This document shows, one piece after another, positions 3,136 to 64,000 of a stretch of 64,000 nucleotides of DNA (positions are counted from its first letter, which is position 1; every line of letters starts with the position of its first letter). The translations under genes were made by a program, and so were the position numbers. Origin of the DNA: a virus; IMG/VR virus record IMGVR_UViG_3300045988_026316; one strand, given 5' to 3'. The notes beneath the pieces are model-generated. The model did not search any database, had not been told where the DNA came from, and saw only the letters and a program-made list of their open reading frames with translations.

Positions 3136-3187
3136 CTTATTATATTTTAGTAGCCCTACCAGGAGTCAAACCCGGACCAGGAGGGTT

Positions 3188-4166
3188 CATAAATCGACTG
3201 TTGCATCCAGTCCTAAGACCAGTCTTCTCGTTCAGTCTGTCACGCTGTTTTCACTTGCGCCTCGTCAACATTGTTTTCCGAGTCAATTAGAGAAGATTCT
3301 AATAGCGGATTATTTATTATCCCGCTACCATCCAATATTTTCCAATGACTGTTCAACCAAAAATTATCCTTATTGTACATGATCGTACGAGTACATGTTT
3401 TAATTCGTTTTGTTTTAACTTCGTTGTTGAGAATGAGTTGCTTTGCGGTCTCTATCAAAGAACCATATCGTGCAATTTCGTTCCAGTTCTCATCGTATCG
3501 AATCACATATTTTTGATTAGATTTTTTCAAACCGCTTTCGCTAACAATCCTGTTTACAACATGTCTACGAACACCAAGTGCTGAAGAAACTTGTTTTATA
3601 TTACGACGTTTTTGATACTCAGCTTCAACTAAATTTCTAAGATCGTCTGTAATTTCATATTCAGAATCATTTCTTTGTTGATTTCTACTACCATAAGTAG
3701 TTGTCTGACTATGACAATTCGGACATAGAAACCGAAGATTTTCTATACGATTATCGTTGTTGATTCCGTTTATATGATCAAGTTCTAAACTTAACGTACG
3801 ACCTTGCCATTCAACACATCCGCAAATCGCACATCGATATGGGATTAGATTATTTTTTATGACATATCGTCTTAAAACAGAACGAGTATGTTTACAATTA
3901 GGTTTTAATATATCCGAAGCATTTACTTTGTGTAAAGTACCATATTTCGTAATTGGAGATTTACCTTTAAATATACTTCCGTCTAAATTTAAATCAGACA
4001 TTCTTTGTTTAACTTTAGCAAACCCCCAAGAATTACCTTTTACACTATAACCTAATTTAAATAACACTTCAGATATAGTCGAACTATTCTTGAGCAGCTC
4101 AACAAACTGTTCGTCTGAGAGCTTATATATTTTATTTTCCATATATTCAATTATTCATTGGATAAA
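3188..4166 (-). mobile_element. group-I-like intron with HNH homing-endonuclease ORF inside the tRNA anticodon loop
   Basis: The 979-nt insert begins after an exon U (4167) and ends in G (3188). The R-like box GTGACAGACTGAAC (3243..3230) contains GACTG, which can pair with CAGTC (3200..3196) as P7. I found no convincing P1 guide sequence, and the P3-P6 elements would have to overlap the ORF. Confidence 0.45.
3240..4142 (-). CDS. HNH homing endonuclease
   Basis: The segment CAICGC...LELDHINGINNDNRIENLRFLCPNCH is a classic HNH/zinc-knuckle core. It is flanked by N- and C-terminal helix-turn-helix-like DNA-binding segments. There is no in-frame TAG, and it ends in TGA. Confidence 0.85.
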   Translation of the reverse strand: MENKIYKLSDEQFVELLKNSSTISEVLFKLGYSVKGNSWGFAKVKQRMSDLNLDGSIFKGKSPITKYGTLHKVNASDILKPNCKHTRSVLRRYVIKNNLIPYRCAICGCVEWQGRTLSLELDHINGINNDNRIENLRFLCPNCHSQTTTYGSRNQQRNDSEYEITDDLRNLVEAEYQKRRNIKQVSSALGVRRHVVNRIVSESGLKKSNQKYVIRYDENWNEIARYGSLIETAKQLILNNEVKTKRIKTCTRTIMYNKDNFWLNSHWKILDGSGIINNPLLESSLIDSENNVDEAQVKTA

Positions 4167-4233
4167 AGAGCCTCTTGTGCTAATCGCTACACCATAGGGC
4201 AGTATTAACCTCTTTCTTAAGGAGGTTAATTGA

Positions 4234-9412: not shown

Positions 9413-9414
9413 TT

Positions 9415-19399: not shown

Positions 19400-19626
19400 C
19401 GAATTCCATAAGTTTTTTAATTGATGTTTTTTAATTATTGTTTATTATCGTAACTCATAGGGTAACGGTTCGTGAGAATAGTTACTCATTTTATGGGCCT
19501 AACTGGTTTTGATTGTATGAGGAAGTAAATCCGTTAACTGCGCATTAAACATCAACTGGCGATTATAATATCGTAGATTACACTCACATAGCGTAAGTGC
19601 TAATCAGGTTCGACTACCAAAGTGTC

Positions 19627-19673
19627 ATGGGCGAGTAATAGGACTGTATGGGGTTCGATCCCCCACGCCCAAC
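19627..19673 (+). ncRNA. acceptor/T-arm minihelix TLE4
   Basis: Acceptor ATGGGCG/CGCCCAA pairs at 6 of 7 positions. The T arm is TGGGG-TTCGATC-CCCCA, with only a 15-nt connector. It ends 16 nt before ATG 19689. Confidence 0.4.
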
Positions 19674-19688
19674 TAAAACAGAATCAAT

Positions 19689-40821: not shown

Positions 40822-43800
40822 TCAGAAGTCGTCTGTAAAGCCTTCGTTACCGAAATCATCCGTAAATTCATCATCAGAAACCTTGGATTGATTATTCTCA
40901 ACCCATTGTGTCTTTTTAGGAACGATGAAGTTATTAGGCGATTGTTGTAAATAGAAGTTTGTGGTGGATTTAATACCTTCTACATGTAATCCTTTAATGA
41001 GTGCATCTGCAGAAGTATTTTGGAATATTTTAAAAATATCCTTAGTGAATCTATTAAAACCTTTATATCCACCTTGTTTGACCTCCTCATCTGATCTATC
41101 GTTGATGATATCCATTGGAATATCCATCCATCTATTCAAATTTTCAATATACGATTTTGCAACAGACGGTGTACTAAGTATATCCATAACAACGCCTGGT
41201 GAATACGCAGAAGCTCGCTCTTGAAACAACTTTAACGTAAATGCAAGCATGTGCCAACGAGCTAGATTCTTAGTTGCCTAATCCATATTACTTGTGTCTA
41301 CGTCAATTATAGGTTTTCCATTAAATGGAAGTAAGTCGATAACCCATTCAGGATCTTTATCAGGATCATCTCCATCATGACCATATGTAAACGGAACAAC
41401 AAATCCTAACAACGCTACAACAATACCAGCCAATATAGTCATATCAGCAATCGTTCTACGAACAGCATATCGTTGATTGTCTGTATATTCAAGATTCATA
41501 CCAGATTGTTCAGACTTCTTTTTCCATCCAATAGCTTGACTTAACCAAGTTCTACGTAACCACTTCTGACAGCCACGTATAAAGTCTTTAAACACAGCCC
41601 CATCAAACTATCCTGTTGATAGATTTTCGTAACCCATTTGATCTCCAACATGTCCGTATTCACTAGACCAGCTTATGTTTTCATTCTTATTGTTGAATTT
41701 AACATAATCAATACCGTTGTTTCCAAACATGTCCCAATATCGATTTACGAAGAATCCACGCATCAATAAGAAGAATGAACCCCATATGTTCTAAGATAAG
41801 AATGCTTTTTCAGACTGATGAACAACTCCATTATATACGGATGTGCGATCATGTAATAGTTTAGCCATTCTGTTCTTAAGATCTTCTGTGACGTATTGTT
41901 CATACTCTTTTTTAACAGAGAAGTTACCATCTTTGTCAAACTCATAAGCATCCCACAGTGTTATTTCTGATCTTTTCCAAACACGTTTACCAGCTTTACG
42001 ACCAAGCTTCATATTATTCAGAATATTACGCTCCATATCAATGATTTGATTACGAGACATAAACTTCTTCTCACCAGTTGTTAGATCTTCAACAAGCTTA
42101 AAATGTCTATAAAAAGCAATCAGCGTTGATGTGTTAATCATATAATCAGCTAACGAATATCCAGCCATTCTTCCAAAGAACATGTGTGCAAGTTTATTTA
42201 GCTTACTACGATCTGTTTGTTTAAATATACCATGTATATCTTTATCACCAGCCTGATTATATCGCATAGCTGCTTCGAGCTTGTTATGAGCTTCTCTAGC
42301 TCCTATGTTGAAAAACGATTGCAGCGAATATATCATTGCATGTGTCCATCCGTATATGAAATCTGAAACGGTCATATATTTACCACCAATAGCGTCAACA
42401 AATGAGCTTATCCATGCATCAGCATAACCGACAGTCATTACCGTGATATTGTTACCCAAAAGAGCAACTGTTGCCAAAGAACGTATTGTTTTAGCACGTT
42501 GTTGAATGGTTTTATCTGACTAAGCATCACGTTTGCTTTTAGTTCTAATCTTAGCAGATGTCTCTTGACCAAATACACGAGAATCAAGTATGTTCTTAAG
42601 TTTCTGAGCTTGCTTACCTTGATCTGTACGTAACTATTGGTTACCACCAGGTTCTGTTGTTTCAAGGGCTCTTTGTAAAAGTTCCCACGATGCAACATGC
42701 TTAGATTTGTTGTTAAAGTTAGCAGCCATTTGATAATACATAATAACAGATCCTAATACATCTGTTGTTATCAAAGATGGATCTTCTAATCGTTGTACCC
42801 AACGAACTGGTAGGTTTGTAATAGGAGTACCATCTGGTCTACGAGGAATATCTAAGTTACTAGTTGCATCTGCATGTTGTTCAGAATATTTACCGCTAAA
42901 TGCATCAACACCCATGTATTTAATAGTTTTCCACATATTACCATTAAACATGTTACGATACAACATTTGCATCTTGTCGCCAGTTATTTGTGGTAATAAT
43001 TCTGATCGCTCTGAAGCATGTTGAGGTATATATGAATTAGCCTCATCCATAGTGCTTTTCAATGCGTTTAAGAATTGCATGTATTTACTATTCTTAGCCA
43101 ACTTATCATATTTATCATTATGATAAATATCCTCATGTGGTTGTACGGGATGATTATCGTTTGAATCAAAACCTTTGTGATTTACAAAGTCTGATGCTTC
43201 ATCAAGTTCTTGATAATCACTTATTGGAACTCTTTCAATCAGTTTATACGTCTTACCACCCTCAGATATTGTATCAAGTTTTGGTGCTAAATATGAAAAC
43301 GCACTTAACTATACAGTTCTACCACTTTCGTCGACATACGTAAATAAATCTGCAAACTGTTGATACATTGCAGGATTAGTTGCACCAACTTTATTATACA
43401 CTTGCGATAGATAGTTGAAATACGCAGTACGACTACCATCTGTTGTAACACACTGAATCATATCAGCAAATGTCTTGAAGGGAATTTTAGGTTTTGTTTT
43501 AGAAATCTTACCTTGTTCAATAAGCTCACGTTTAACCTTAGCAATCTCCTAGTCGATTCTCTTAAGCTCCCTCCACATAGATGTGTCAGTTGATAATCCA
43601 GTACCAGCTTTATCTAAGTTAGGTTGATAGAACCCGAGTTTATATTTCATAAGATTTATAAGCTCTTTCTTACGCTTATTTAAAGCGTCTAGTCTTGGAT
43701 CTTTATACTTACGACCTAACTGTGATAAAAGATCATAAAAGTCATCGGTAAGTTGTGTAGAAGTATTATCATTTATGAACCTATTACGTTCGTTAGGATC

Positions 43801-46800
43801 TGTTATTTCTGATAAACGTTTATTATAAACATCATAGTTGATTTTAAACTTAACATGATTTTTTATAAATGCGTACCAATCAGAAAGTTCATCAGCTATA
43901 CGTAATGCATCACCTTCTTTTGCTCGTACATTTGTTATTCCGTCTGAATCAACCCATGATTCATAGTGTGAACTAAGAGCATTCTTCTATCTTCGTAATA
44001 CTTCAAGCTACCTCTTCTCTTGAGGAGACAATAAGTTTGTGTTGATAAATCCATCCTTATCACGTATATTTTTGGTTATAAGATTTATATTACGATTTAT
44101 CTGATTCAGAGCAATAAGTGTGGATCTTGACAAATAACGTCTACGCTGTTTATAATAATCAACAGTATATCGTCTATTCGAATGTGTATCCAACCAATCA
44201 TCTAACTCATCGTAATATTGATTATAAACAGACTTATCTGCAAGTTCGTCATCATCATGAAACTAGACATTACCTTCATCGTCGAATGTTATAGCATGAG
44301 CTCCGTATTTATCAACGTTTGAGTATTTCTCATTTAACTATGCAATGATTTCATCACGATCTTTATAGAACTATCCGTAGTTAATAGGTCGTATAAAGTA
44401 TCCAGTTGGAGCACCTTTTTTATCAAGTTCCATGAACTATTTTTGAAAGTTCAATATACTTAATTGAGAGCCTATAGGTCGTATCTCGTTATACATTCTA
44501 ACGAGTTTGTTGCCAACACTTAATGTTTGACGATGAGTTTCAAGATCTGCATTTTTAATAGCATCATCGATCATACGTATAAGTGAAGACCTACTACGAG
44601 AAGCCATACCTATCCAAAATTCACCAGAATTTAGTTGTCCATACATATATGAACCCTCTAAAAACTCATAAGCTCTTTGTCTAAAAGCTGCTTTATCTTT
44701 AAGATCTAATGTATTTACAGTCTGATCTATATAATATTTAGCATATGGATGAAGCAGATGTGTTTTATATGTATCATATAATGTGTTTAACGCTACATTT
44801 AATTGTTGACAATATGCAGCAAGGTCAACTCTACCATCTGGGTTTAAACTATACCAATATTTGTTATACTGAGAAACAGCCGATGTTGGAGATGAAAATA
44901 GTTGATTTATATATGAGAATAATAGCTGATAATGACCTAACAAATCTCGTTCTAGAGATATCAACATATCTGGGTTCCACTCAGAAGGATTCTTATGAAC
45001 AATAGATTGTATATATTGATATACATGTGCGATATCGCTATCAGCATTACGTAACGAATCAAATAGTGCATCATACAAATCTTCAACCTTGTCACCATCA
45101 TATTGTTCAAATCGTTCAATCTGGTTCTTAAGTCTAACTATTAATTTCTCATTACGATTCTTTTTAGCTTGAGAAGCTTTTAAACGACTTGTTGTACTAG
45201 AATGTAGTTTGTGCAATATATCACGATCTTTTTCATTTAACAACAGAGATGATGAATAATCACCAACAGCTCTATCGTATATAATCTGTACATTCTAATC
45301 GTGATGGAGTTCTGCATTCCACATTTGTGCAGCACGTATAGCGTTAATAACTTCTGCTTTTTGTTGATCAGTAATAGTCTTAACACCAAAAACGCTCTTA
45401 GCTAATTTGGTAAGATTATCCCAGAAGCTAGCTATATAATCAAGTATAGACTTGTTGTTTATACGATCGTTGATGTTTTGATCAGTGACGGCATTTACTA
45501 AAGCTCTTTCAAGATATTCAGACGTCCTAGAACCAGTGTCATTGAATATATCTAAGCCTTTTTGAATAAGATCAGAATTCCAAAATAAACGAATATAATC
45601 ACGAGCAATTGCTTTATCAACAGCTACTATATCACATTCAATGAAAGCTTTATATAAAGCTGTTGTTACATTGTTATAATCACTAACACCAGCTACTTCA
45701 TGATATAGCTCGGAATATTTAGAACGATATTTCTACCATGTATCCTCGTTTAGTTGATTTATAGTATATTCTAAAAAATCATCTGTTTTACGATGTCTTG
45801 TTGCAACGTAGATACCATCGACATACTATAAGTTGTAACGATTAGCCAATAACTATTGTACGGACTTAAGAGAATCTTTCATACGATGACTATCATACTC
45901 GACAATCTTAGCAGCTCTTGTTTGATTATCCCAACCTGTTATAGATTTATTTATCTTACTACTAACACTTACGAAAGCATCTTCTTGAGACTTTAGCCAT
46001 CTATCTTTTTCGGATTTAACCTAATCAAATACATCAGATATACTCTTTAAAAACAGTTGGTTGCTTAATGAAAAACGTTGTTCAAAATCAGAAATTGTTT
46101 TAAGCTCAACAAACTACACATCATCTGATAATATCAGTTCTGTGAGTCTTTTAAAACCAATACCTTCAGCCAAGTTTTCAGCTGTGATTTCATATTTCTG
46201 TATGATAGCATTAAACTTAGGAACGCGCTTTAGATACCCGACAATACCTTTAAACAAATCTAAAACTTTATCTCCGAAATTATATTTAGCTTTAGATTTC
46301 TTTTTATCTGAAAAGCGATGTTTAAACTCATCAAATACGTATCTACTCAACGCCTGAGTAACCAACTCTTCATCTTGGTGTTCTTTATACAAAGCGTTTA
46401 TTTCAAGATTCAATTCTTTAAAATTATCCTTTGCAAACGATAAGAGTCTTTTGAATAATTCAGGATTATCCTGCTTAATATTGTATATAAGAACGTGCAA
46501 CATTTCTTCAGCTAGAATCTAACCGTTAAACCTACCAGCACGCAAGTATATTGTATTACCAGCAATGAACGAATTAGCAGATCTTGCTTCAATACCAGTA
46601 CCTTTTCCAACAGACCAATCTGATAACTTATTCCATGTTTCTTCGCCAGCAACAATTATTTTAAACCTGTTTCCAAATACGTCCTATAGCTTTTGTTTAA
46701 AAGCTCTTAGCATATCGTCTGGATTCCCAGGCTTGAATAAGTCACGGGATATTATATCCTTGCGATCTACTGTCAAAGGCTTTTTAGACTAGCTATATGC

Positions 46801-47517
46801 TTGTATAATAGTATAACCACCTTGGAAAAACCATTCATTACCATGTCTTATATATTGACGTGTTGGGTTAATTCCACGATTATTCAAAAGTTGTCTGGCT
46901 TCCTTAACAGCTCTATATGTATGACCAGTTTGTGTTTTGTTTTCCTCAAACCAGTTGATCATTGATTGTACATCAAGACTGTATCGTAAACCACCCTGTA
47001 ACGGACTTATTGTACCGTCTCTGTTGATAGATCTTATGTTATACTGATCTGCAACGTTGACAACAACGTTGTACGAGTCATCATCAACTATAGATAGTGA
47101 TTTATCTAATGTAGATACGTAACATGGATATACGGAAGAACTTGTATCTGATAACGATATTGCCTTATTTGTAAAGGCTGTAGATGGTTCGTTAGACTCA
47201 TAAAACAAAACCCTCGGTTCTCCGTTAGAATCAACAGATGTACTTTTATAATCAAGACCGGTGAGCCAATCTCCAAACCAATCTTTAAAATATTGTGTGT
47301 ATGTTACAGACTTAGCTTTTATAGCCTATGATCGATCTCCATATAACGATTGGAGATTTGAAAACAAAGTAGAGTCGGCTCCGTTAGGAGCCTTATCTAC
47401 CATGTATCCATTATTAAGTGACCATACAGCATATGCACCTACTTCACCTAAAGTAGACACAAGCTCATTAAACTCTTTAGCTACGTCTGGATTACTTAAA
47501 TTAGGACAAAAATACAT
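40822..47517 (-). CDS. giant virion (polyvalent/ejected-type) protein, ~2230 codons, 23 in-frame TAG
   Basis: Twelve track ORFs from 47326..47517 down to 40822..41250 are all in one frame, separated only by TAG. The start is ATG 47517 and the true stop is TGA 40824..40822, next to the terminator. The FKDWFGDW motif is shared with the upstream giant gene. Confidence 0.75.
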
Positions 47518-47518
47518 A

Positions 47519-50500
47519 TTAATTACCTTTACAATGTTTCATAATATCATCGTTAAACAACGATTGTTGACGAGAATCATCATACTTAACATCAATAGAT
47601 TTGATTATAGGAATTGCAACGTCGTCATATGACTTTTTCTAACAACGCTTCTAAAGCTCAAAACCTATATAGTGTGCGACAAGTCCTCTAGCGTCATCAT
47701 AATTCATATAATCTGCAAGCATTAGTAAAATACTATTTGGCACAGTACCAAAGCTTAAAAGATTAAATAATGCTTCTCGGTCATATGAATACAGTATTCG
47801 TGATATCTTTTCACGTACTACTTTATCAGAAACCTCTAAATAGTTATCAGCATTAAAAATATTAGCAGCTATATTTATCGCATCAATGAGCGATACTCCA
47901 GTTATGAACGTTTCTCCTGTTATAACAGGTGTTATATATTGTTCTTCATTTGGAGAAATAGCTTTTATTTTATCTATAGCGCGCTAGACATCATCAGATA
48001 GTTCGATATCATTATCATGTTCAACAAAACCTGTTATGTGTAGTTTATTCCATAATGGTAAATGCGCATCTGATTCGTTATACGCAACTTCAGCGTTACT
48101 TGTTATGAAATCCCTCAGCGGCATATGATTAAAGTCTTTTAATGTCAGAGTTTCAATGTCTGCATAAGACCAATCAGAGAATGTTTGCTTAAGGCTCTAC
48201 CAGAACTTAAGAATCCAATCCTTAAGCTTGGATATTATATCAGAAGATCCTTGCTTAGCTTCAATCTCTGAAATAAGTTTAGCACCGCCTTCACCAACAA
48301 GCCTTGCATGAACCTCAGAAGCAATCATAAACTCACGCTGTGCATCAGACATATTAGACCACTTCTTACCATAGAACTCACTATTAGCTATTTCATTCCA
48401 AAGCTTACCACCATTGAATTGTTTCATTAACTCAACACCACGTATCCACAAAGATGGGTTTTTCAGAGCCACAACTCTATCCCAAATGTGCGTATATTCA
48501 TGTATAGGATGTTCTGGCTTAATCTTATTTTTATCAAGATGTATAATACCAGCGTCATCAACATATCCATAGACAACACCTTTTGAATCTTTAAAGAAGT
48601 GAATGTTGTTATTAGTTCTTGAGAAAGTTGTATTTTCTCCACCAGCTGATTTAATTTGATTAGGAGATATGAAACTATAAGAAATACCACCTCCTTCTGC
48701 TTTATTTTCATATTTTGTGCCATCGTATCCTAAAGAAAGCATTAACTTTCTTAATTCAGAATTAGATATTCCTCTAAGAGACGAATATCTCTCTCTAGAA
48801 ATAATGCCTTGTTTATATAACTCTGACAACATATAACTTGCAGTTTCATGTACAAAATCATCTGTATACAGTGGGTTTCTTGCGTTGAGGAATAAAGCAA
48901 GTTGATTACCTTTAATCGTATTAGCAGTTTCCTGTGTTCCTACATGGCCAAAAGGTTCTGACATACCTGGAAGAATCCTTGACTCGTGATCCATGTCAAA
49001 TACGCTAAACTTAAAAGGAGTATTGTGGTACACTACCAACGGTTCACCATTCTCATCAATTACTTTCGATGCATTCTTAGGATCATTCTACCAATCACCA
49101 AACCAATCTTTAAACTCTCTAGTTCTTACTTGAGCATATAGACGTTCTGGTAAATTAGATGGTTTACCATTAGGAGCTAACAGTCTACCTTTAGAATCTC
49201 TTGGAGCTTCATCTAAGATAGTCTACAATCTCTGTTCATAATCATCTGTTTCAGTAGAAATAGTATTCGGTCGTTCTATAGCAAACTGATAATCTTCATT
49301 CCTTTCAATATCATTCTTGTCGATACCGTATACAGTAAAACCACTATCTTTAAGGTGTTGAACAAGTTGTTCTGTTACTGATTTTTCAGAGCTATCAGTG
49401 CTAGTAGGTGTACTTGTTTGAGGTTGAGTAGTACTCTGGGATTTACGTAACTCGTCACGAACCTCCATTAATAATCTTGGGAATTCAGTCTTCCATTTAG
49501 ATTCATCTTGGTTATGCGTGAGTGTAGCATTACCAGTGTCGAGAAGCCTTTGAGCTGCTTGAGGATTTTGTTCAAAAGATTCTTTAAGCAGCTGTTTCAT
49601 GACATTATAAGAATTAGCATCCCATTTAGTAACATCCAATTCTTTTATCTTATGCCCAAGATTCCTCAATTTTGATCCAGATGTTGTGTTCATTATATCA
49701 TTAAGGGTGGTACTATTAACACCTTGTTTTGCAAACAATGCTCCTTTAATATAATGAAACGCCTGTTCTACAGATTGGAATGTCTTCTGAGTACTATCTT
49801 CGAATGTATGAACAAACGGTCTTATTGCAAAGTTACTTAATTCAGCATTTTCTTCAGATTTAAAGTATATATTGATAGGTTTATAGTTTGACTAAGTCTG
49901 TTGCTGAGTCTTATTAGCAGTACTTGGTTGATTACCAGTATTGATAGGTTGTGCTTGATCATCATCAGTAATAGCTGCTGCTACACCACCAGTTTGCTCT
50001 GTTCGTAGATCATTCAATATTGCAGTATACTCATCTCCGAAATTCTTTTTTATTGCAGGTAGTTGATTTATAAAATCTGCTGATTCTACAAAGGCTCGTA
50101 ATGCACCTTGGTTTACAACATACTCTGTACTAGATGGAGTTGAATCATTACGACCATATTCTGTAACCATGAATCCTCCAGATACTTTAGTACCCTTAGG
50201 CTGTACGAGCACATATACAGGATACATAATACCACTATCGTGTCTTGCAAATCCATATAGTTGATATACATTATATTGACGCTGTGAATCATAGTGGTTA
50301 TACGAACGTGGTATCTTTATGAACTTTGGTGAGCTTTCAACTGCAATACTAGGTTCATACATACCCTCATCATTCTTTTTAAGAGCTGCTAATATTGTAG
50401 GATAAGCTGATAACGTTTGCTTATTACCATTAACAATATTCATCTTAGCGACACCTATAAAGTTAGAAGACCTCTTACCATTAGCATCTTTTGAATAGAA

Positions 50501-53500
50501 TTGATATGTAGGAACAAGTTTGTTATCATACCAATTATTCAAAAGAACATCATTAAGATCAACAGTAGGAATAGAATTGAGCTATACTAGTTTTCTATTG
50601 ATGAAATCTGCATAACCGCTCTTCTTACGCCAAGATGCTGGTACATACTTAAACATCTTTGTAAAACCTTGAGTATCTCCAGATGTTATGAAAGCGTATA
50701 CAACAAGATCTCTTGCAAAATTACGTATATATTCAGCTACTTGCGGTTGTTTATCATTCTAATATTCCAACAACTCATTCCAAGCGTTGATTATATAGTT
50801 CGTATTAATACCACCATCATCAACAAAGTTTTGAAGCTTGACAAACTTCAGATCATCATACGTATCAGGACGTTCTCCAAGAACAGCATCTTTGGGAGAA
50901 TATTTAACTCGTTTTCCAGGGATAAGCATTTCTAACAATAGATTACCCTGTAAATCAGAATAGTTACTGTTATGATATATCATAGGTTTGAGACGAGATA
51001 ATCTGTCAAAAATAGTATTAGCTCCTCCAAGTAATCTACATACTCCGTTAAAATTACCATTTATAGATATATTCAGCTGAATCTTATCGTCTTTTGCTGT
51101 CAACACCTTTAACGGAAGTGCATTGCCGTTTTTATCACGAGGAATATATTGTTGAGGATTTCCATCTTTATCCTTGTACCAAAGTAGTATAGGTTGTCCA
51201 ACATAACTCTTTAAAGAATGCTTATTGCCAGTAATTGACATACTATTTGTAGAAGCATCATAAGAGAATTCAAGATCTTCAGAACTAGAGTTGACAAGAT
51301 CGTGCATATATCTTGGATTATCAGATATTCTAGAAACATAATCATTGAAGAACTATGACTTAATAGCTGCAGACAATGCCTTTTGTGCTGATTGTGCAAA
51401 TGATACAGATAATGATGTATTACCAGCCATTGTATTCAGCTAACGTAACATTTGTATGAATCCCGTAGTTGATGACATAAATTGTCCTCCGAGTATAACT
51501 TTTGTTAGCGAAATTGCATTTCTAGTCTTCGTACCAACATAACTATGTTCAACCAGATCTAACAATCCAGCAGGTTCGAACAATGCACCAACATCTCCTT
51601 TCTTAATCAATACGCCATCTTCGTCTGTAGCAAATTCAAACAGTTCGTCAAAACCTTCTTTATATACAAGTTGTTCAGCAGCACTCTTACCATGCTTTTT
51701 AGTATCAATCTTACAGTATTTAACAAGGTTTGCTAAAGCATTTGCGTACTTGCTAAATTGAACGTATGCGAGATAAATACCTAGCTGACGAGACTTTAGG
51801 CCTTTTTGATCAGCGACATCATTTCCTTGTGCATAATCCCTAGCGTCTTGTTTAAATTGTTCACTCTCAAACAACTTCTTTATAGCTTCATTTATAGCCT
51901 ATATAGACTCTTTGTCACCAGCATCTATTAAACTTAATGCATCATCAAGAGTGTTACCATCGAATGTTACATCTTTACCAAAATACTGTTCAGCAACATC
52001 TTTAATAGACTACTGTTGTCTGCTATACGTAGATCCGTTCTATTGCATGTATTGAGACGAAGCTTTTACATAAGCATCAGCCATTTGTTTCATAATAGGC
52101 TGAGTTAAGAAGTAGAATGTGTTTCCGCCCCATCCTGTACGTAATAACAGGTTTGTAATATTATACGAGAATGGATTGACATTAAGTCTGGATATCCAAG
52201 GATCTTTAGCGATATCTACGTGGGCATTGATCATAGCTGAAATCCATGACATGATTGAGTTACCATCAACATCAAGTTGCTTATCAAGTCTACTTAATCC
52301 AAGCGTGCTTAAGAGACTTGACTGGGATTCTCTGAATGATATATGATATATCATTGTTAGGATTTGATTATTGTTGTTCAATGCAAACGGTCCAATACCA
52401 ACCTTACCTGTGATATAATCGTTCTTAGATGCTGTTTGACGAGCTAATGAGTAGAATGAATATGGAGATTCTATTTTAGATTTACCAGAACCCTCTATAT
52501 CTTTAAGAACACTCTTAGCTAAGTCAGTATCGTTATCAATAGATCTATGTAATATCTGTACGTTACGAGGTCCGCCATTATCCTTTTTATCGATAAGTAA
52601 CGCCAAATACATGTCGATAATCTTATTCTGAAGTCGATGTTCCTCTGTGAGTTCAGATTCCTTAACAAGACGTTGTTCTACATAACCATATATGTTTTCA
52701 ACACCCTCGGTCTTATAATTAAGACCTGATAAAAATAATTTATCAATATCCATTTATATTAACTTATACTTACGTATAAGATTAGACTATATCTTCACAC
52801 TTACGTGTGTTTCCAATTTCCACATTACTGTGTACATCCAACGAACGTCTTCGTTGGCTCAAATCATAAGTTATTTTATGTATCATAGACGGTACTTGTA
52901 ATACATATGGTTTTACTATATTTATAAATTTAACACCTTCTTTTGTACCACAACACAATGAATACGAATCTTCTTTATGACCTTCATGAAACATATAAAA
53001 TGATATGTCCCATACTTCTTTAAAATAATCAATAAGAATTTGAGTATCATGTTTTGTAGTACAAGTAGATATTTTAATATAGAAACCCATCTGTCTACCA
53101 TCTTTGGTCTTACGTATATTTATATGACCATCGTCCATATACCAAATAGCTATCCCTTTAGCATCTAATCGATTTAGCAATTTACGATTAGCTATTTGTT
53201 TTATTGGTTTATAAAACACTCTACGTAATACTTTAGTAAACGGTATAATGTTTAATTGTGTATATACAACATCAGACCCTTTATTATATCCTGCAACACA
53301 GGTGTATGATTTACAACCATTGTTACGAATACCAGCATTATTTAATTGTTTTATCTACCACTCAAGATAATCTTGTTGTTTATATGAACGAGCTATCTTA
53401 TATACATTATTTTTAGAAATCGTACCATCGCCTATTAGCATTGCGATTAGTAAATTTCTACTATCTTTATTAAATTTAGTTTTCATAACGATAAACGTAT

Positions 53501-56500
53501 GTTATTTATGATTTGACATTAGTCGTTGAACCTTCTTCTATAAACGTATACTATAGAAGCTTGGCTGCTGATTATCCATGTAATATGGACTTCCCAGCAA
53601 TTAAAGAAATTTAATGACTCCAATATTTTAAAGTCAGAACCAGTAATCTTTGTAAACTCTTCTGGTAGAATAACAGTATCGTTAACAACGGGAATTACAT
53701 CGACACATCTTAATGCATGGATTGAAGACTGTGCCTGCGTAGGAATACGATATGCTAATATATTTGCTTTAGCCTCTTCTCCGATTATACCGTTGTTAAT
53801 AAGCCACTAACGAGCCTCTTCAAAAGATAATTGACGTTTTTCTAGTTTTGTTTTATATATGGTGTTGCCATCCTTATCAACCTTAATATTACCGTCTTTA
53901 TCCTTAAGAGGTATTTTTGCTCCATCCTTTGTTAACTCAAACGTTCGTTTTGTTTGTATATCAAAATCTCCAAGAAGCTTCTTAAAGTAGTCTATTGATA
54001 ATACGCAGTCCATAGAACCCTCTTTGTTTATCATCTACAGACGCTTACCGTTGTATAAAGTTACATTATTGTCTCCAACTATACCGCCATCACTACGTTC
54101 AAAAAGCTTAGATCCCTACATTCCCCATACAGATCTTTGAATAAACGCAGCACCAGGAGTTTTCGTATCAATAACTTCTCCATTGATCTTAGCAATAAGT
54201 TTACTCTCTAAGAAGTTAGAAGACTACACAGCATCTACAGGCATTGATAAACGATAACCAGATTTCTCGTCACCTTCAACCTGAAGTGATGATAATAAGT
54301 TTATATTTGGATCATCACTCTTGATCATATCAAGAACAGTTTCAATAAACTTCTTCTAATCTATTACAACCCTTGATAGATTACCATCATCAATAACTTT
54401 TCCGTCTCCATCTATAATCTGTCCGTCTTCATTGGTTTTGAAGAATTGTTTCATTACATTCTACATACCAATGTCTGACAACCTGTTCATAGAATTCATG
54501 ATTGTATCTAAGAGATCTTGTCCTTTTATCTTAGTTCCATCACGTAATACATAATAGTTATTGACATTCAAGTTACTCATTACAATTTTAGTAGCTTGAG
54601 TACCGATGTTCATGTATTTTTTCTCATTCGGATCAGTATTCAACTGCTTACGTAAATACTTAAAACGTTGTTCGTATGAGTTGAATTTAAATGTATCTAA
54701 GAACAATGGCTTTTCATCTCCTTCGACACTGGAGTAATCATCCCATTTAATAGGCTGAGATCCTTGCGAACCAACTTTAATAGCAGAGTTAATCTTTAGT
54801 TGATCAACACCTTGTTTTTTCATTGCATGGAATATGTTGGCTGTACGACCATATGCAATACTTTCAAAAATCGGGAACAATGCATACTTATCGTAATACG
54901 TAATCATTATTCCAGTTTTAGGATCTCTACGACGTCCAAATGCAGTATATTTCTGAGTACCGATGACTGTTGTAACAATTTTGTTATACGCATTCAATTT
55001 AGTACGAACAGTATATATATTACCACTACGTAAAATCTTAAATGCTTCTTCAATATCACTGCTCCAAGAACCAACCATTCTCAGCAAAGCTTCGCACATT
55101 TCATCAGTTATGTACGCACCACCATCAGCAACATCTATACCATCGAGTTTTTCATCCTTAGACAACCTATAACTATCTATAACAGATTTAGCCTTCTTTT
55201 TTATAACAGCAATAATACCTTTGTGCTTTGATTCTAGAAGTTTTTCGATCTCTTCATCACTCATGCGTTCAAGCTGGCTGTCAACTTCATTACGAGCTTT
55301 TTGTTCAAGATTATATTTGCGCCTACTAGCTTGTATATCAGTCTCATCTTTATATTTTTTGAAACCCTCCAACTCTTTTTCAATATACTCATCACATAAC
55401 ATTGAATAAGCAGTCTGTCTAAGCTGACCAGTATATACAAGAGGTCTCATATATTCAACCTGGGGAGACTCAATCATTTCATTATCAACCTCTGCTGATA
55501 CATAAACACCTTTCTGATAACGATCTGGTAACCCAACAAGACCTTCGAAGTTATTTGTTCCAGTGGAAACCATACCACCAAGACGTTTAAGCTCATCGAC
55601 AGTTCTATCAATCAAGTTACCATCATCATCGTATTTCCACTTATAGAAAGCAGGATTTCCAGCAAACAATCGCTCAACCTCATGTCCAGATATCAAAGCT
55701 TTGTTAGAAAGATCGTTGATATAAGCAACTATTGCTTGGTTAAGTATCTTATCACGTTGTACCTGATCTTTTTCTTGTCCCTTCTTGATATTATATTTAG
55801 CACATATAGCACTATAAATACCTTCAATGGCACTATTGTTTAAACCTATATTTTTAATAACATAGTTCTTCTTGTTATCAAGTCCGATGACATCGATAAG
55901 GCCTAAATCTGCAAGATTCTGTATCTCATTTCTGGTATTATGATCAAGATTTCTAGCGATTAGTCTACGTTGTTCAGAAATAGGTTTACTAAAGAAGTGC
56001 TCTTCAGCTGTTTTAATATTATCTTTATATGTATGGCCATCCTTTTTATCATTAAATGACACAAATACCTCATCGCCATTATTATCAAGCTCCCACACAC
56101 CAAGTAGTGATGAGAATCTAGCACCTTGTTCTTTGGTATAATAGTTTGCAACAGCTGTAGATTTAGTGCCGTCTTCATTCATCTAATCAAGAGCTTTTTC
56201 AGCATCTTTAACAGATTGATATTCAGAATAAGCATAGCTCATAAACAGATCTATAACATCTTCTTGTTGCATGATGTTTCCATCAATCATACCTATACTT
56301 TCAGCAATTTCAGGTACAGATAATATTGTTCCGTTTGGAGCATACATCTTGAGATAATCAATTCCAGGAAGTTTTATTCCACTAACGAATGTCCAAGATT
56401 TTTTATCAGACAATGTTGGCATTATAACACCACCTGACTCAAGTATACAAAGTTTTGATATACAGTCTTCAGTATGACTTATGTCAAAATAATCCGAACC

Positions 56501-59500
56501 AATATCATCTTTATTATCCGTTCTAAAACCAATAAAGTTGTGTAATCCAATACGAAGATTCGGGTTGTTTGATAACTGGTCCAATACGTATGATCCGATG
56601 AAATGTTTTCCTCCAAAAGCATCATCCTCAAGCTTTCTATATATGAATGGATCACGACCATCTGTTAACTCTACGAAATCAGAGTTTCGCATGTTTAGAT
56701 CATGCACAACATCAGACATATAGTTATTATCAGACATCAGATAGAATTTGTTCTTACCCGTGCCTAACACTGTCAACTGGTCTGAATTATGTCTATAATT
56801 ATAAACCCACGTTGCCAGATTTTTAGTAAATGCAAATCTGTCATATATAGTCTCCAACATAACCTTGCCAGATCCCCTTAACGAATACGCCATGTTGTCA
56901 TCAACATTAAGCTTTCCGTTTTTACTTATGTCACGTAAGAATTGTAAGAATGACGTCGGTGAGTCTTCGATATTTGTAGAAGACAACATCTAGTTCAGTG
57001 CTTTGTAATTAACAGAACCGTATTTATTAAACAATATCCAATCAAATACAGGCCTTGTTATATTGATTCCAACAGCATTTAAACCACTTACAAGTCTATC
57101 TAACGCCATATCGAAATCATCCTTACGTCCAGGGCTATCCAGATATTTAATTTCATATACAGGCTTTCCGGCTTCTTTACTCTTCTTAGCATTGTACTGA
57201 CGTACAGGGAATAAGTAAATCTCTCCTTTAGGTCTTCCTGTATGAGGCCAAGATGCTCTCCAGGCAACCCATTGTTTTAAACCAACAATGTTTGCAGCCT
57301 AACCGTTCTTAAGCGTAACCTGTTTGTTAGAGTCAATCATATCAGCAATACTAGTAAACATCGTACTAGCATTCCTGTTTCTAGGATTAAGAACACGACG
57401 TCCATACTGGTCTATAGATACTAAATCAGTACCTCCATTTGCTAACTAAGCACTCCATTGTAATGAATATTCACGAGCAGAATACTCTGTTCCTGAAGGA
57501 GTTAATGTCAATTTATAAAGACCGAACGGAGCTTCTGACTTAGCTAATTCTTTATTGTATTGAGAACGTACAATATCAAAATTATATTTATTCGATCTGA
57601 TGTTTGATACTAGCTGTACAAACAATGCTTCTGCGTCTGCGTCACCTTTATCAACCTTCTACTTAAGGGCCTTTAATTTTGTGTAAGCAACGTAAAATAA
57701 TCCATTGGACATGCTTGCATTACGCAACGTATCCAATAATTGCTGTACGTTTTCACAATCATGACATAGGTTAAGTATCATGTTGTACGCAATATTCATA
57801 GGTACATATTGCGGTAGTCCATACTTGTTAAGCTTATTTATAACTTTATATTGAACTAAACCGTCTTTATATACCAATTTACCCTTTTCAGTAAGTGGTT
57901 TTAGCTCACAATCAGCTATTGTTGAAAAGAAGAACTTAACACGAGATGATGATTTATCAAATCTACTGAATTCAAAACTTTGTCTTGTATGTTCTCCAAT
58001 ATCATTTCCAACAGAAGATCCTGCATCAGATGCGTCTCTTGAATCACGTTCAATACGTTCATGAAAATCGGTTGAAATACTTGAAATACGTGATGCCATA
58101 TCTCTTCTTAACTCAACAGCATCAAATTTTTCAAGAATCTCTCCCATACCAAGCTGAGCTGGAGTTTTATATTCACCATGTCCGAGTATATCTAATCCAG
58201 ACTTATATAGACTTTCAACACCTTTTTCGAATGTTTCTTTATTGATATGTTTTCCAATATTTGCAATATTCGAACCATCGTCTTTAACATCGAATCCGTG
58301 CATGATACAGAACTTTGCAGTCTCCATTAGATTGTCAAACATATCATCACTAATGATATTTGAAAACTCAATACCGTGGTTTTTATAATACAAACCGCCA
58401 AATAGATCATTAAATCTCTATACAGACTTCTTGTCAGGTTCTATTCCAGCATATTTACCTCGTATTATAGCTGCATACAAATTATTAAGATTTCTATCAC
58501 TTCTTTGACTAAAGCTTAATATGAAATCTCTTATATTGTTAATAGCACCTTTTATCCGAGTTTTAATACGACCATCACCTTCTTTTTGCTCAACATACCA
58601 TTTAGAATAGTTCATGAACCTATCTGCAAGAAGCTCAGCAACTTCTCTTATAGCATTCTTACGAATAGCATCATCTTTGCTATGGATATCCAAATTGTTA
58701 CGTTTTGCATAGTACTCATATAAGTCATCACGTATTGCTGCAGGAACACATAATTCAAATGCAAAGTGGAACGCCTCGTGAAAATCAACTCTATCTGGAG
58801 CGTATTCGCTAAGTACAATGGCAGATGATTTACAAATACCCAACACAGACGGGTCACGCATTGCATTAGATATAAGGTTCTTTCTGAATTCGATCTTACC
58901 TTCAAATTGCTTACCAAGTATCGTTGTTATACGACGTTGTGCTTTTGCTTTACTTATATGAGTTTTACTAGGCTCTTTCTGCTTATAAAAAACAACACTT
59001 GATTCATCAGTATTATCTATTTGAGATTCGCTAAGTCCTTCATCAGAATCATTATCAGGCATTTGTTCAGCCCAATCTTGATTCGTAGTATAATCATCAG
59101 GATTTATACCAGGATCTGGTTTAGAGTATCCTTCCGGTTTAACTTCAGGGTCTTCTTGAACTTGAACATCTGGTTGTATAGGGCTGTTTGCACCAGTGTT
59201 AGAGGGTGCCTAGTTTGGATCTACAGTTGATATATCTGTAATATACATATTAGGTGGTGCAAAACCAGCACAGTCTGTTAAAAATACACCGTGTTTAACA
59301 TACCACCCAAGGCCACTCAATCCACTATAATCATCAACAGCTTTAAAATCAGACATATCAAATGTCAATGTTTCAGTAACCTTGAACTATTGCTAATCTG
59401 GATGTTGTATAAACCAATCTCTAATTGCTTTTATAGGAAGTGTATTGTCTTTATTAGAACCAAGTCTAGCTAACATGAAACTATGTTGCTCAGGTATGGT

Positions 59501-62500
59501 TAATGTTTTCATCACACTGCGGAAATTTGTTTTTCCAGCATCTGTGTTCAAATCAATCTCACCAGCATATCCAAGTTGATTGTTAGCGGCTAGATCTTGA
59601 CGCATTCGTATGCGTATCACACCAGGTCTTCCAGGAATTAACTCAATTGCTTTTAATCCGACAAGGTTGTCTTGACTTGCTGCTATTGGCATCAACAATG
59701 ATGCAAGTGCTCTATTAGATACTCCATTTGTTTTACCATTGAGTATATCTGTATTGCTCAATACACTGATCAAGAAGTCAATATCATCATCCGCAAATGA
59801 TTTCTTTTGAACAGTAACTGGAATTACAGCAGGCTGCTTATTACCTTCATCACGTGCAATTCTTTTTAAATAAACAAGGGTACCTCGCTCAGGAGCGTGA
59901 TTTGGATTGTTATATCTAAATATTGTTCGTTGTTCACGATCTCCAACAAGTGTGTTGATATTCTCACCATTAGCGAATCCAAAATCGTTTGATGCATTTG
60001 ACATCTCTATTTTATATAGATTTGTACCAGCAAGAAGCTGTGCATCTGGATCTGTCAGTGGTCTTAACACATCTTCTTTAACAACAATACGACCATTTGT
60101 ACGAGCCATATTAGCTATTATTTTCACACCGGGCTGTGCATCTTCAATACTAACAACACGGTTGTACAGATTCTATCCGTTCTGGCTTAGTGTACGTGGT
60201 TTACCTTTAACAAACGCTTGATACAGATTAAGCGGTATGTTGTTATAAGTCTTACCACGGTACGTGATATGTGCAAATAAACTTGGATTTGTATGTCTGG
60301 CACTTTGTGCACCAGCATGTCGTTCAACACTACTTATTTCAACAACAGCATGTGTTATAAAATCAGGAGCATTAAGTAGTTGTGCAAGCTCTTTATTTTG
60401 ATTTTTATAGAAGAACTCGTAATCCAATGATGGAGACGGGTTTGTTTTAAGATCACCTTTGTTTGTAGCAACTCTATATTCTCCAGGAGTATATTGAGGC
60501 TACTCCGGTTTAGGTTGTGCAGTTTGAGGTGTACGATCTTGTACAGGCTACGTTGGCGTATTAAGTATCTTATATATATCAGCATTATTTACTTGGTCAA
60601 ACGGAGTCATTTTGTTTTTGAGACCGTTGTTGATTATATCTGGCCACTGTCTCGCACCGTCATATGCTGATTTCAAATAAGGTACTACATCCTGTCCAAG
60701 TTCATTAACGAGATGTTTTACAAAATCGTTGAACGAATATATACCACGATCAATTATGCCAACAGCATATTTTGCCATCAAGGTTAATAATCTCGGATCT
60801 ACTCCAGAATTTAACTGTCCGGTCTTACCTTTAAGTATATCAAGAATTTCACTACGAAGTTTGCTCATCTCTTCGTCAGAAACTAATCCGAACTAACCTT
60901 CGTTCTAATTAGCATCAACACCAGGACCTTGTTGCTGTGATGGTAGTATTTTAACTTCACCGTCATGCATCTCGCCTATAGACGATTTTGTTCTAACAAT
61001 AGCTGTTGACTCTACAAATTGCCCGTTCTCAGTTTTGCTTATATAAGATCTTACACCAAGTATCGTTATATTAAGTCTTGTGCATTTATCAACAAACTCT
61101 TGATCGAGAGAATATTCTGACGGTAATTCAAGTGTTGCAACACCTCCAATGTATTTACCGTCTTTTGCATTTTTTGCAACAAACTCTGTGGATTGTACAC
61201 CAGCTTTCTCCTCAGTACCGTTGTTTACAAATCCAGTATAATATACACCTTTTTTACCTTCTTTTCTTACAGTAGTACCTTGTACGAATAACTTTTCATT
61301 AGCCGCTTGAGAATCACTAGGATCCTGTTCTCCAGTCAAAGAACCTTCTCTATCAATATTAGCAATGTCTTGTATGTATTGTTGTGAGTTGATATAATTA
61401 TCGTAAGCAGTAGCTGTTTGTGCATACTCGGCTTCAAGATTAGATATGCTGTTACGTACATCATTAAGCATGCTGTAATACTTAACAGCCTTATCAATTC
61501 TAGATTTTAAGTTCTTAGCCTATTCAAGGGCGTTTACAGTAAGTGATTGTTCGTCTATTAACTGCGACTCTTCATTAAATCGATTTATATCATTAACAAG
61601 TTTATCGAGAGCTTTGATGTATTTATCAAGAGATTTAAGCCTTGGATCTGAAATATAATCGTATGTATCTGCAAAACCATCATACGTACTTAGTTCTGAT
61701 AAATATTGATATAGCGTATTATACTGGGTATCGATCTCTAATTTAAGCTGTTGATATTGCTGCCAAGCCTCATTAACAGTGTCAGGTTGCGTTGTATATA
61801 GTCGTTGCATTTCAGTGCTTATAGGCAGCATTAAACGCAACGGAGCACCGTTTACAAAGTTACTAACGCTCAAGTTGTATATGTTATAACCATCATTAGT
61901 TTCATCCCATCCATATTTAACAACATATGGTAAAATTTCAAGAGACTCTACACTTAAACCAAGTTCGGCTTGAATAAGCATCTAATAAACAGTTTGTTGA
62001 TTCGTGTAGTTTTCGAATGGAGATTGTTTTTGTCCATATTTCTGATTTGCTTGATAAAAGAATCCAGAATACTCAGCTATGACAACAATTTCACCATCTA
62101 CAACATCTAATTCAACACCGTATTGATTATTAGCCGCTTTACGAATGCTGTTGAGTACACTGCGTGCAGCATCTGTATTGTTCTTTACATCATCAACTGT
62201 TAACTTATCAAGTTCAGATTTAAAATCTCGTGCAATAGTACTATTTCTACCTCGTGTTTTAGCAAACTAAAGTCTAGATGTTTTAAAATCGATGATATGT
62301 ATTTTACCATCTTGATCGATACCGATCATATCTGTTTCACCAGCGACTCTACCAACTCCAGGAAATTCAGCATGCCACGTATAAGCGTTTGTGTTCAACA
62401 CCCATCCAAGATCCGTAAACTATTTTAGAATACCTGCCAATTCGATAACAAGATCGCGGATTTGTTCATCAGACATCACCTAACTTGCATCAATGTCGTT

Positions 62501-64000
62501 AAGTATAGACTTCACGATGTTAATTGCGTATTTTACATTTTGCTCATACTTATCTTTAGTATCAGAATGCATGGTGATATATTCAAGAGCTTCTACGCCT
62601 TCAAAATGTCCAAACATGAACCTTGAAATCTCATCAACAATGTTTCCTACTACAACACTAGGTCCTGGCGACTTCTGAATAACAATATGTGCAATATCTG
62701 TTATGGCAGCCTACCACTCAGAATTGTTTTCAAGATTATTGAATATAGGATGCTCAGTAATATACGTACGATATACAACAAGGTCGTGTAACATGGATTT
62801 TTTCAGACGTTCATCTTTCAGTTTTTCGTTAATCCATTTAACAACCTCAGCCTTTGTAGTAAGTTTAGATAACTCCTGAACTACGAGTTTACGACTTTGG
62901 ATCAGATCATCACTCTCCTTGTATGCTTCAGGTAAAGTACTATGGACTCTATTGTAACGTAATACAGAACCATCATCTTGTTTTATAAAGTATGACCTGC
63001 TTGTAGTATCATACTTACCATCCATTGCAGATACAACATCGTCTGCATTACGTACACTTAATGGTTGTTTTATTACACGAGCTTCGTCATCTTTTAGTTT
63101 ATTTTCGAGCGCATCGAACGTTTCTTCCTGTGAAGTCTTTGTTTCACTAGAGCTTAGCTGTGTACCACTACCTGCTGGAGTATACTGCTGTTCAGGCTGT
63201 TTCTGAGTAGGCTGTGATTCTGGCTTCTACTGTGGGCTCTGAGCAGGTTGTGATTCTTGACCTTGTCCAGCACCAGCCTGAGATTCTTGTTGTTGTCCCT
63301 CAGTAGGTTTTTGTTTATCATCTGGTTTTTGTTCTCCAGCAGGCTTTTGTTCTCCAGTAGCTTGTTGTTTGCCACCAGTATTGCTTTTATCTTCAGGAGC
63401 TGTTGTGTCAGCTGGCTGTTCCTAACCTTTTTGTAGTTCAGCGTATTTTTTACTATGTTCCTTTTTAGTTCGTGCAAAAGGAGTATCTCCTTCTGGATTA
63501 TAGAATTCATATCCAACATCGACTCCTTCTAACAATGATGCCATACGTTCTGTATACGTATGTCCTGAATTAGAATCCCATTCTCCAAAAATAGGAGTTT
63601 CTTTCACCTCATGTTTATCAGAATAGTCATATAAATAACCATCTTTATCAATAAATGTACCATCTGGGAGTGGGTTTACAGGAACACCGTCTTCGTCAAG
63701 CTTAACTTTAATCTAGTTTCCGTTGCTACCGATAACAGGATTCGGCTTAGATACTATGAGAGGACTCCATCCGTTTTCCTCATCCATCTTTGCTGCAACC
63801 TCTTCGTCAGATTCAAATGCGTCAGATGTAAGTTCATTCCAGAATTCATCATTTGTCTATTGTGTTTTACGAATGTTGTCCATTATCTGAGCACCATTTC
63901 CACCGACAAATTTGATCTTCTTATTATCTTTTTCCTACTTACCAATAAAGTTTGCAACAGCTTCGTTTGCGTTATTAATATTTTGTTCTAATGCAAATCG
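47519..64000 (-). CDS. giant multidomain virion protein with RNA-polymerase catalytic module; 5' partial; >=45 in-frame TAG; intron 52751..53629
   Basis: A single frame runs from the window edge to TAA 47521..47519 when TAG is read as sense. The beta-prime-like segment is YRIPTQAQSSIHAL...GSDF|DIDK. It also carries a PD-(D/E)XK-like motif (about 62276-62341), HEAFH (58783..58769), a NADAR-like region (about 49223-49890) and HEYTH (48502..48488). Confidence 0.75.
52751..53629 (-). mobile_element. group I intron carrying a LAGLIDADG endonuclease ORF
   Basis: The exon ends GACUUU, which pairs with the guide GGAGUC (53621..53616), with U.G at the splice site and an 8-nt loop. The R box GGTTCAACGACTAATG lies at 53532..53517 and the S box AAGATATAGTCT at 52795..52784. 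A GUAA-loop P9 hairpin follows, and the terminal G is at 52751. Confidence 0.8.
52782..53486 (-). CDS. LAGLIDADG homing endonuclease (intron-encoded), 1 in-frame TAG
   Basis: The two motifs are LIAMLIGDGTI and GIAIWYMDDGH. ATG 53486 joins track ORF 52782..53219 across TAG 53357..53355. It ends in TAA. Confidence 0.85.

Follow-up and report, generated by a model that had tools for sequence, protein, structure and literature searches.

We analysed a window of 64,000 nt, the whole stretch of viral DNA held in IMG/VR record IMGVR_UViG_3300045988_026316, whose source is a gut crAss-like phage, and followed up an 879-nt insert on its minus strand that separates the F codon from the second D codon of a catalytic motif, DFDID, and carries an open reading frame (ORF) for a homing endonuclease. 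The insert is very probably a mobile group I intron that interrupts the DFDID of a late giant virion polyprotein containing a crAss-type RNA polymerase. The locus is made up as follows.

53630..64000, minus strand: exon 1 of the giant virion-protein/RNA-polymerase gene, continuing past the window edge (frame with TAG as sense; homology to phi14:2 gp66)
52751..53629, minus strand: group I intron of 879 nt, first base A53629, last base (omega-G) G52751 (empty site, RF00028, covariation)
53615..53636, minus strand: P1/P10 region (guide pairing, exon-guide change within the clade)
53517..53609, minus strand: 5' half of the ribozyme core (RF00028 model positions 5-158, 45.8 bits)
52782..53486, minus strand: LAGLIDADG homing-endonuclease ORF, 234 residues plus TAA stop (PF03161, phrog_11023, homologues)
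52751..52814, minus strand: 3' half of the ribozyme core (RF00028 positions 219-251, 25.2 bits)
47519..52750, minus strand: exon 2 (frame with TAG as sense; aligned to gp66 residues about 1363-1784)

Within the window exon 1 comprises at least 3,456 codons with 31 in-frame TAGs and ends ...ACT GGT TCT GAC TTT at 53630 (protein ...EFTKITGSDF), and exon 2 starts GAT ATT GAT AAA at 52750 (protein DIDKLFLSG...) and runs for 1,743 codons plus a stop, with 14 in-frame TAGs. A 700-residue segment across the spliced junction matched a single PDB sequence, 6VR4 (E=6e-19), which is the virion RNA polymerase gp66 of the crAss-like phage phi14:2, and the alignment is gapless across the junction, where TGSDFDIDKMYV stands against tgsdfdidklfl of 6VR4 and TGSDFDIDK is covered. 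Alignment to the DPBB region of gp66 gives a contiguous DFDID only once 53629..52751 is removed, and the peptide expected across the spliced junction is ITGSDFDIDKLF. A sequence-only reading of this DNA had proposed that the join recreates GSDFDIDK in the catalytic loop of an RNA polymerase, preceded by YRIPTQ, and both parts of that proposal agree with gp66, which has YRIPNQGQSS at the latter place. The catalytic motif of gp66 is 1361-DFDID-1365, and alanine at any of its aspartates abolished RNA synthesis, so that the motif is essential (bioRxiv 10.1101/2020.03.07.982082). In some crAss-like phages the polymerase is fused to its neighbours as a huge polyprotein (bioRxiv 10.1101/2020.03.07.982082), and the spliced frame of the window, at more than 5,200 codons, agrees with this. 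The junction segment matched 39 phage records by tblastn, all of those with retrieved annotation being Crassvirales, and the top relatives were cr124_1 (54.5%) and cr131_1 (49.5%), both Suoliviridae/Oafivirinae of the 'Delta' group. These relatives came from the protein-level search, and megablast of the locus against GenBank phages gave no match.

The insert starts AAAAUAUUGGAGUC and ends ...UAAAUG. IMG/VR contig 3300045988_015620 (L123) is without exactly these 879 nt (query positions 1502-2380, equal to window positions 53629..52751); its identity to the window is 98.3% in the 1.5 kb upstream of the insert and 95.6% in the 1.5 kb downstream. Its junction reads ...GGTTCCGACTTC followed directly by GATATTGACAAG..., an uninterrupted GSDFDIDK, and this intron-less allele has GGTTCCGACTTCGATATTGACAAG across the insertion site. 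The empty site is exact for the boundaries that the sequence-only reading had drawn (879 nt from 53629 to 52751, a final G and a 53630/52750 junction), and its supposition that homologous polymerases carry a contiguous DFDID at this position holds for gp66 and for L123. Also as it had stated, the unspliced exon frame runs 36 codons into the intron and then meets TAA. The intron is present in contigs L124/L154, L125/L156 and L155 as well, and over the whole 3.9-kb locus L124 is 97.6% and L125 95.2% identical to the window. The F codon is TTC in the intron-less allele and TTT in all four intron-carrying alleles, which thus supply the U required at a group I 5' splice site; the four intron-plus alleles and the one intron-less allele differ consistently only here and at a GAT/GAC. 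Seven synonymous differences separate the window from L123 in the first 30 nt of exon 2, and a co-conversion or immunity tract in exon 2 was rejected since the intron-carrying contig L124/L154 shares most of the intron-less spelling there.

The RNA of the insert has the order P1, P3, P4, P5, P6/6a, P7, ORF, P3', P8, P7', P9 and tail. In P1 the exon sequence UGACUUU (53636-53630) pairs with GGAGUCA (53621-53615) and places U53630.G53621 at the 5' splice site, and immediately next to this guide strand AAUAUU (53627-53622) pairs with GAUAUU of exon 2 to form P10; within the clade of the window a synonymous exon change from TCT to TCC is matched by an A to G change in the guide. The 5' half of the core holds the P3 5' strand UUUCU (53609-53605), P4 (53599-53594 with 53571-53566), P5 (53589-53585 with 53579-53575), P6/P6a (53564-53531) and the R box GGTTCAACGACTAATG at 53532-53517, which includes the P7 5' strand ACGACUA (53526-53520). 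In the 3' half, the P3 3' strand GGAAA (52814-52810), 790 nt away from its partner across the ~700-nt ORF, is followed by P8 (CACAC-GUAA-GUGUG, 52809-52796), the S box AAGATATAGTCT at 52795-52784 with the P7 3' strand UAGUCU (52789-52784), and P9 (CUUAUAC-GUAA-GUAUAAG, 52780-52763), and a 12-nt tail ...AAAUG ends in the omega-G at 52751. The exact R-box and S-box strings occur once each in the 64 kb. The sequence-only reading had named P1 (as GACUUU/GGAGUC with U.G at the cut), the R and S boxes, a GUAA-capped P9 and the terminal G, each of which was located. The ORF does not lie in P8: it follows P7 and precedes P3', where introns of subgroup IA have P7.1/P7.2. The intron would be of an IA-like phage type. 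The last 13 sense codons of the ORF (..VEIGNTRKCEDIV, 52823-52785) also form P3', P8 and the greater part of the P7 3' strand, the last base of which is overlapped by the TAA stop of the ORF (52784-52782).

We counted pairs in 19 distinct introns, taking the strands of P3, P4, P5 and P7 from fixed sequence anchors and those of P8 and P9 from a hairpin search; the anchors replaced a MAFFT alignment of ORF-deleted introns, which misaligned P3' and P8. Core pairs were standard-paired in 96.6% of cells, compared with 31-46% when the partners were slid by 1-3 columns, compensatory changes were found in 18 of the 31 core pairs, and the observed covariation score was reached by none of 500 shuffles. 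P3 was fully paired (5/5) in all 23 introns with ten different helix sequences, all five pairs covarying, and P7 showed A-U to G-C and A-U to G.U changes. Two candidate elements were rejected: the local P3' that Rfam places at AUGUCAAAU just after the R box is flagged for non-canonical pairs, the covariation placing P3' at 52814-52810, and a second R-box-like site, at 16691 with 2 mismatches, falls in a coding frame, an equal number of matches being obtained in 9 of 100 shuffles. The exact P4-P6 core string AATTGCTGGGAA...AATCAGCAGCCAAG was seen in at least 120 viral contigs of 4-280 kb, and thus this class of ribozyme core is widespread well beyond crAss-like phages.

Several points weigh against the group I assignment or its details. 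In a regional E-value scan RF00028 matched 53636-53511 with 45.8 bits (E=4e-10) and 52797-52765 with 25.2 bits (E=6e-4), and a whole-window scan gave E=1.9e-8 for the 5' part; neither partial match reaches the RF00028 gathering score of 50 bits, and a default Rfam scan of the window at the gathering threshold reported no intron. The scores are partial because the 705-nt ORF splits the model, and the sub-threshold values are a technical failure of a single-hit cut-off and not evidence against membership, so that the sequence-only call of a group I intron, matched by RF00028 at both ends and backed by covariation in relatives, stands. RF00028 aligns the conserved U.G one base upstream, at U53631, and only a cut at U53630 yields an in-frame DFDID and agrees with the empty site. 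There is no evident P2 helix in the polymerase intron, and the pairing of P8 and P9 is partly built in since their strands came from the hairpin search. Splicing of 53629..52751 itself is predicted from sequence. Finally, the TAG in the endonuclease ORF lies opposite K, not Q, in more distant homologues.

A search of IMG/VR with the endonuclease gave 22 further homologous introns, and GenBank added cr131_1 and cr108_1. Removal of each of the 23 analysed introns yields an in-frame D[FYL]D[IV]D; the next residue is K in 21 and H in two (L148, L149). In all 23 the last exon base is a U paired to G and the last intron base is a G. The final intron codon is not always ATG, other members ending in GCG, AAG, AGG, GTG or TTG. 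With D1 and D2 as the first two aspartates and x as the residue between them, the insertion falls in three phases.

After D1, GSD/FDID: cr131_1 (= L148, L001), L149, L157, L158
After D1, GSD/YDID: L167, L173-175, cr108_1
After x, GSDF/DID: window, L154-156, L163-165
After D2, DFD/IDK, DFD/VDK, DLD/VDK or DLD/IDK: L159-162, L166, L171, L172

In all three phases P1 and P10 of every intron match the exons that flank it. The carriers are Suoliviridae (Oafivirinae, and contigs closest to Boorivirinae) and Steigviridae (cr108_1). Three phases in two virus families may imply repeated re-targeting of one catalytic motif, and not simple vertical or homing inheritance. The motif DNA is a quasi-repeat, GAY NTY GAT NTT GAT, and we speculate that it could favour ectopic reverse splicing or misaligned repair, moving the element by 3 or 6 nt. 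A neighbour-joining tree of the endonucleases mixes the three phases, and because it has no support values we draw no history from it. The cr108_1 intron (L181), at 296 nt, lacks an ORF, has a 46-nt structured insert where the others carry it, and gives 80 bits with RF00028, above the gathering score; the intron of L167 scores 55.6 bits. ORF-less introns suggested in cr10_1, cr4_1 and cr1_1 by two-piece tblastn matches were rejected, their coding sequences being continuous and the insertions hence in-frame protein insertions.

Three giant minus-strand frames in the block 40822-64000 are open only when TAG is read through, with 68 in-frame TAGs, and five plus-strand ORFs that we checked are open under the standard code with none. 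Beside the two exons stands the giant frame 40822-47538 (minus strand; 2,239 codons, 23 in-frame TAGs), downstream of exon 2 and overlapping its end by 20 nt. A plus-strand frame at 9289-11520 (744 codons) is open only with 13 TAGs as sense, and thus TAG recoding extends beyond the minus-strand late block. Opposite the TAGs of the window, Q is the residue most often seen in relatives (51 cases), with two conserved positions (Q16 with eight stops, and Q19), and the residue inserted at UAG would most likely be Gln. Reassignment of TAG to Gln in late genes has been published for Delta-group crAss-like phages (PMC7886860). What makes the polymerase dependent on TAG suppression is the presence of at least 45 in-frame TAGs in its own exons (31 and 14). 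The sequence-only reading had reached the same need from the TAG in the endonuclease, and that reason did not hold: this codon would matter for the polymerase only if the endonuclease also acted as a maturase, and the cr108_1 homologue without an ORF argues against an obligatory maturase.

The endonuclease ORF is in a frame different from that of the exons, with 143 nt between the splice site and its ATG. Both LAGLIDADG motifs are intact (LLIAMLIGDGT, IAIWYMDDGH), and it matches Pfam PF03161 LAGLIDADG_2 with 68.2 bits (cut-off 25, E=1e-18) over residues 12-187, and phrog_11023, 'homing endonuclease with LAGLIDADG motif'. As the sequence-only reading had described, it is a recoded LAGLIDADG endonuclease, with its single in-frame TAG at 53357-53355 (codon 44). 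Homologues of 60-99% identity are present in the 22 other polymerase introns, those of L154, L155 and L156 being 94-98% identical to that of the window. Sister ORFs in Suoliviridae-like contigs have as many as six TAGs, and for at least five of these the aligned residue in relatives is Q. Copies in Steigviridae-like contigs have none; this distribution indicates that the endonuclease gene drifted into the late-gene code of its host. Nuclease activity and its target are predicted.

The early position of this TAG is also what one would expect if the ribozyme were functional and the endonuclease gene decaying, codon 44 being a real stop that leaves a 43-residue stub and a stranded, non-homing intron, an explanation that we consider improbable. 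The K at this position in more distant homologues fits with decay, and the ORF-less cr108_1 derivative shows that ORF loss occurs in the family. Against this, 190 further open codons follow the TAG with the two motifs preserved, the Pfam match spans it, and it is retained in four contigs with 94-99% identical endonucleases. Moreover, TAG stands as a sense codon 68 times in the late genes around it, and the sister endonucleases carry 1-6 TAGs, of which at least five are aligned with Q in homologues.

We also considered that there is no intron, and that the locus makes two polypeptides, one ending ..GSDF plus 36 residues and the other starting MDIDK.. from the ATG at 52753-52751, with a free-standing endonuclease between them. 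Gene callers do find the ATG-initiated ORF at 52753, and RefSeq lists the polymerase of cr131_1 (implicitly) and cr108_1 as two or three separate 'hypothetical protein' coding sequences; however, the three-aspartate metal site would then be divided between two chains, the terminal ATG is not conserved among family members, the guide has complements in both exon ends, covariation in the core spans the ORF, and intron-less relatives encode the polymerase as one continuous chain. Hence two chains are highly improbable. An intein removed from the protein is refuted by the frame analysis, since the exon frame meets TAA 36 codons into the insert and the ORF begins in another frame 143 nt past the splice site, and moreover no Hint domain was found in the Pfam search and RNA structure signals are present, even though LAGLIDADG inteins also target catalytic motifs and TerL inteins were reported in Delta-group crAss-like phages (PMC7886860).

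For the mobile group I intron that we prefer, the guide AAUAUU-GGAGUCA in the pre-mRNA would pair with both exon ends, forming P10 with GAUAUU and P1 with UGACUUU, and the P3-P9 core would fold around the ~700-nt ORF. Free guanosine would then attack after U53630, the released end of exon 1 would attack after the omega-G at 52751, and ligation would join ...GSDF to DIDK..., restoring the metal-binding triad. This guanosine-dependent self-splicing and its timing are predictions. The ligated mRNA would give a full-length polymerase only when UAG is read as an amino acid, and owing to its single UAG full-length endonuclease would be made only with an active suppressor. The endonuclease presumably cuts intron-less alleles of the L123 type during co-infection, which would drive homing.

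The suppressor that such decoding calls for may be encoded in the same window, in a gene that is itself interrupted.

3150..4201, minus strand: split amber-suppressor tRNA(CUA) gene (intact allele, ARAGORN on the joined halves, HNH, covariation)

The 5' half (4201-4167) reads ...AAGAGGCUCU and the 3' half (3187-3150) AACCCUCC...GGGCUAC, and a 979-nt insert (4166-3188) splits the anticodon between U35 and A36. ARAGORN, with and without its intron option, and the Rfam tRNA model found no tRNA(CUA) in the window, and ARAGORN on the joined halves gave the anticodon cta. Contig 3300029717_000007 (L184) has an uninterrupted 73-nt tRNA that equals the two halves joined, and in cr131_1 the tRNA(CUA), to which the window pieces are homologous, adjoins tRNA-Val. 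The insert carries an HNH ORF (4142-3240; 300 residues, no TAG, Pfam match) and a group-I-like core at its 3' end. Homologous HNH ORFs were found in 23 crAss-like loci, always at CU/A of a tRNA(CUA), and the tRNAs at these loci have ten different anticodon stems, all still complementary; at least 23 crAss-like contigs, differing in the body of the tRNA, thus share the arrangement. RF00028 gave no match in the tRNA-split inserts, and a guide-sequence search did not find P1 of the tRNA insert. RNAalifold on the last 160-190 nt of 11 inserts gave a P2 hairpin, a 7-bp P3 with six compensatory pairs, P6 and P8, and P7 covaries (GACUG/CAGUC versus GACUA/UAGUC). We read the insert as a putative divergent group I intron in the suppressor anticodon, from which a mature tRNA might be spliced.

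Yutin et al. noted recoded crAss-like genomes without a detectable suppressor tRNA (PMC7886860), and split tRNA(CUA) genes are a candidate explanation for such phages. No report of split suppressor tRNA genes was found in the literature searched, the coverage of which is incomplete. The tRNA(CUA) must decode the at least 45 UAGs of the polymerase and its own gene is split, which would add a second dependence on splicing. It may be, then, that this lineage can express its virion RNA polymerase only by way of two nested RNA-splicing events, a suggestion that we make tentatively and rate at slightly less than an even chance; if true, RNA splicing may act as a gate on the code switch itself.

Other small RNA-like elements were seen in the window. 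A marginal 92-nt tRNA-like match lies at 4467-4558 on the minus strand (RF00005 29.4 bits, just at the cut-off), and only with its threshold lowered does ARAGORN report a tRNA-Ser(gga) there. On the plus strand a permuted tmRNA-like element at 19310-19687, for which ARAGORN gives the tag peptide GDYNIVDYTHIA ending at a stop, contains a match to RF04321 at 19353-19596 (39.9 bits, gathering score 47). A twister-P1 ribozyme-like element at 17125-17183 (plus strand; RF03160 56.6 bits, gathering 67.2, E=4.7e-10, full model length) lies in a gap flanked by two ORFs, of which the first ends at 17084 and the second begins at 17216.

For annotation, once the intron is recognised, cr131_1 and cr108_1 regain a single catalytic polypeptide with its DFDID site. 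The intron is a clean case of a selfish element in the least mutable codons of an essential enzyme, the three insertion phases of its family illustrate the re-targeting of a motif by such elements, and the natural intron-plus, intron-minus and ORF-less alleles are usable for homing studies. The split suppressor tRNA gene is a testable answer to the published puzzle of recoded phages in which no suppressor tRNA is detected.

Classical group I introns of phages include those in td, nrdB and nrdD of T4, in the DNA polymerase gene of SPO1-type Bacillus phages and in the Staphylococcus phage Twort. The polymerase intron resembles them in its place in essential conserved coding sequence, in having its ORF in a peripheral loop and in endonuclease-driven homing, which is predicted here. 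Unlike them, its host gene encodes a virion-packaged QDE-1-like RNA polymerase, its endonuclease is LAGLIDADG, whereas those of classical phage introns are usually GIY-YIG or HNH, and its ORF is recoded and overlaps P3', P8 and P7' with its 3' end.

In bacteria, group I introns occupy the anticodon loop of cyanobacterial tRNA-Leu(UAA) and tRNA-fMet and of proteobacterial tRNA-Ile and tRNA-Arg. The tRNA insert of the window likewise lies inside the anticodon loop, with a 5' exon ending in U and an insert ending in G, and the core of such inserts covaries in P2, P3, P6, P7 and P8. In contrast to the bacterial introns, it splits a phage amber suppressor (CUA), is 979 nt long, carries an HNH ORF and is missed by RF00028.

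A group I intron endonuclease with in-frame reassigned stops has been described in Agate phages, and its authors proposed that recoding holds back the endonuclease for as long as the suppressor is inactive (Borges et al., bioRxiv 10.1101/2021.08.26.457843). In Agate the codon is TGA and the host gene early, whereas in the window the codon is TAG and the host gene late and heavily recoded; because the host gene is late and itself recoded, the endonuclease TAG would bring no separate timing effect.

Closest to the present case, Yutin et al. (2021, PMC7886860) reported that core genes of Delta (Suoliviridae) and Zeta crAss-like phages harbour group I introns with homing endonucleases, and within the transcription gene block the legend of their Fig. 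3 names a 'LAGLIDADG intron-encoded endonuclease maturase'. Those phages belong to the same order as the window, whose nearest relatives (cr124_1, cr131_1) are also Suoliviridae, and they show the same pairing of group I introns with TAG-to-Gln recoding of late genes. Introns were detected there through protein domains only, and disruptions of DxDxD in the Zeta group were called unexplained (PMC7886860). To that work we add boundaries fixed to the base, an allele with the empty site, the fold of the RNA, three phases of insertion and a carrier among the Steigviridae (cr108_1). Hence group I introns, a LAGLIDADG ORF in the transcription block, TAG recoding and recoded intron endonucleases are already published for Crassvirales-type phages, and what is found beyond the literature consulted is the base-level proof, the series of intron-plus, intron-minus and ORF-less alleles, the three insertion phases and the split suppressor tRNA.

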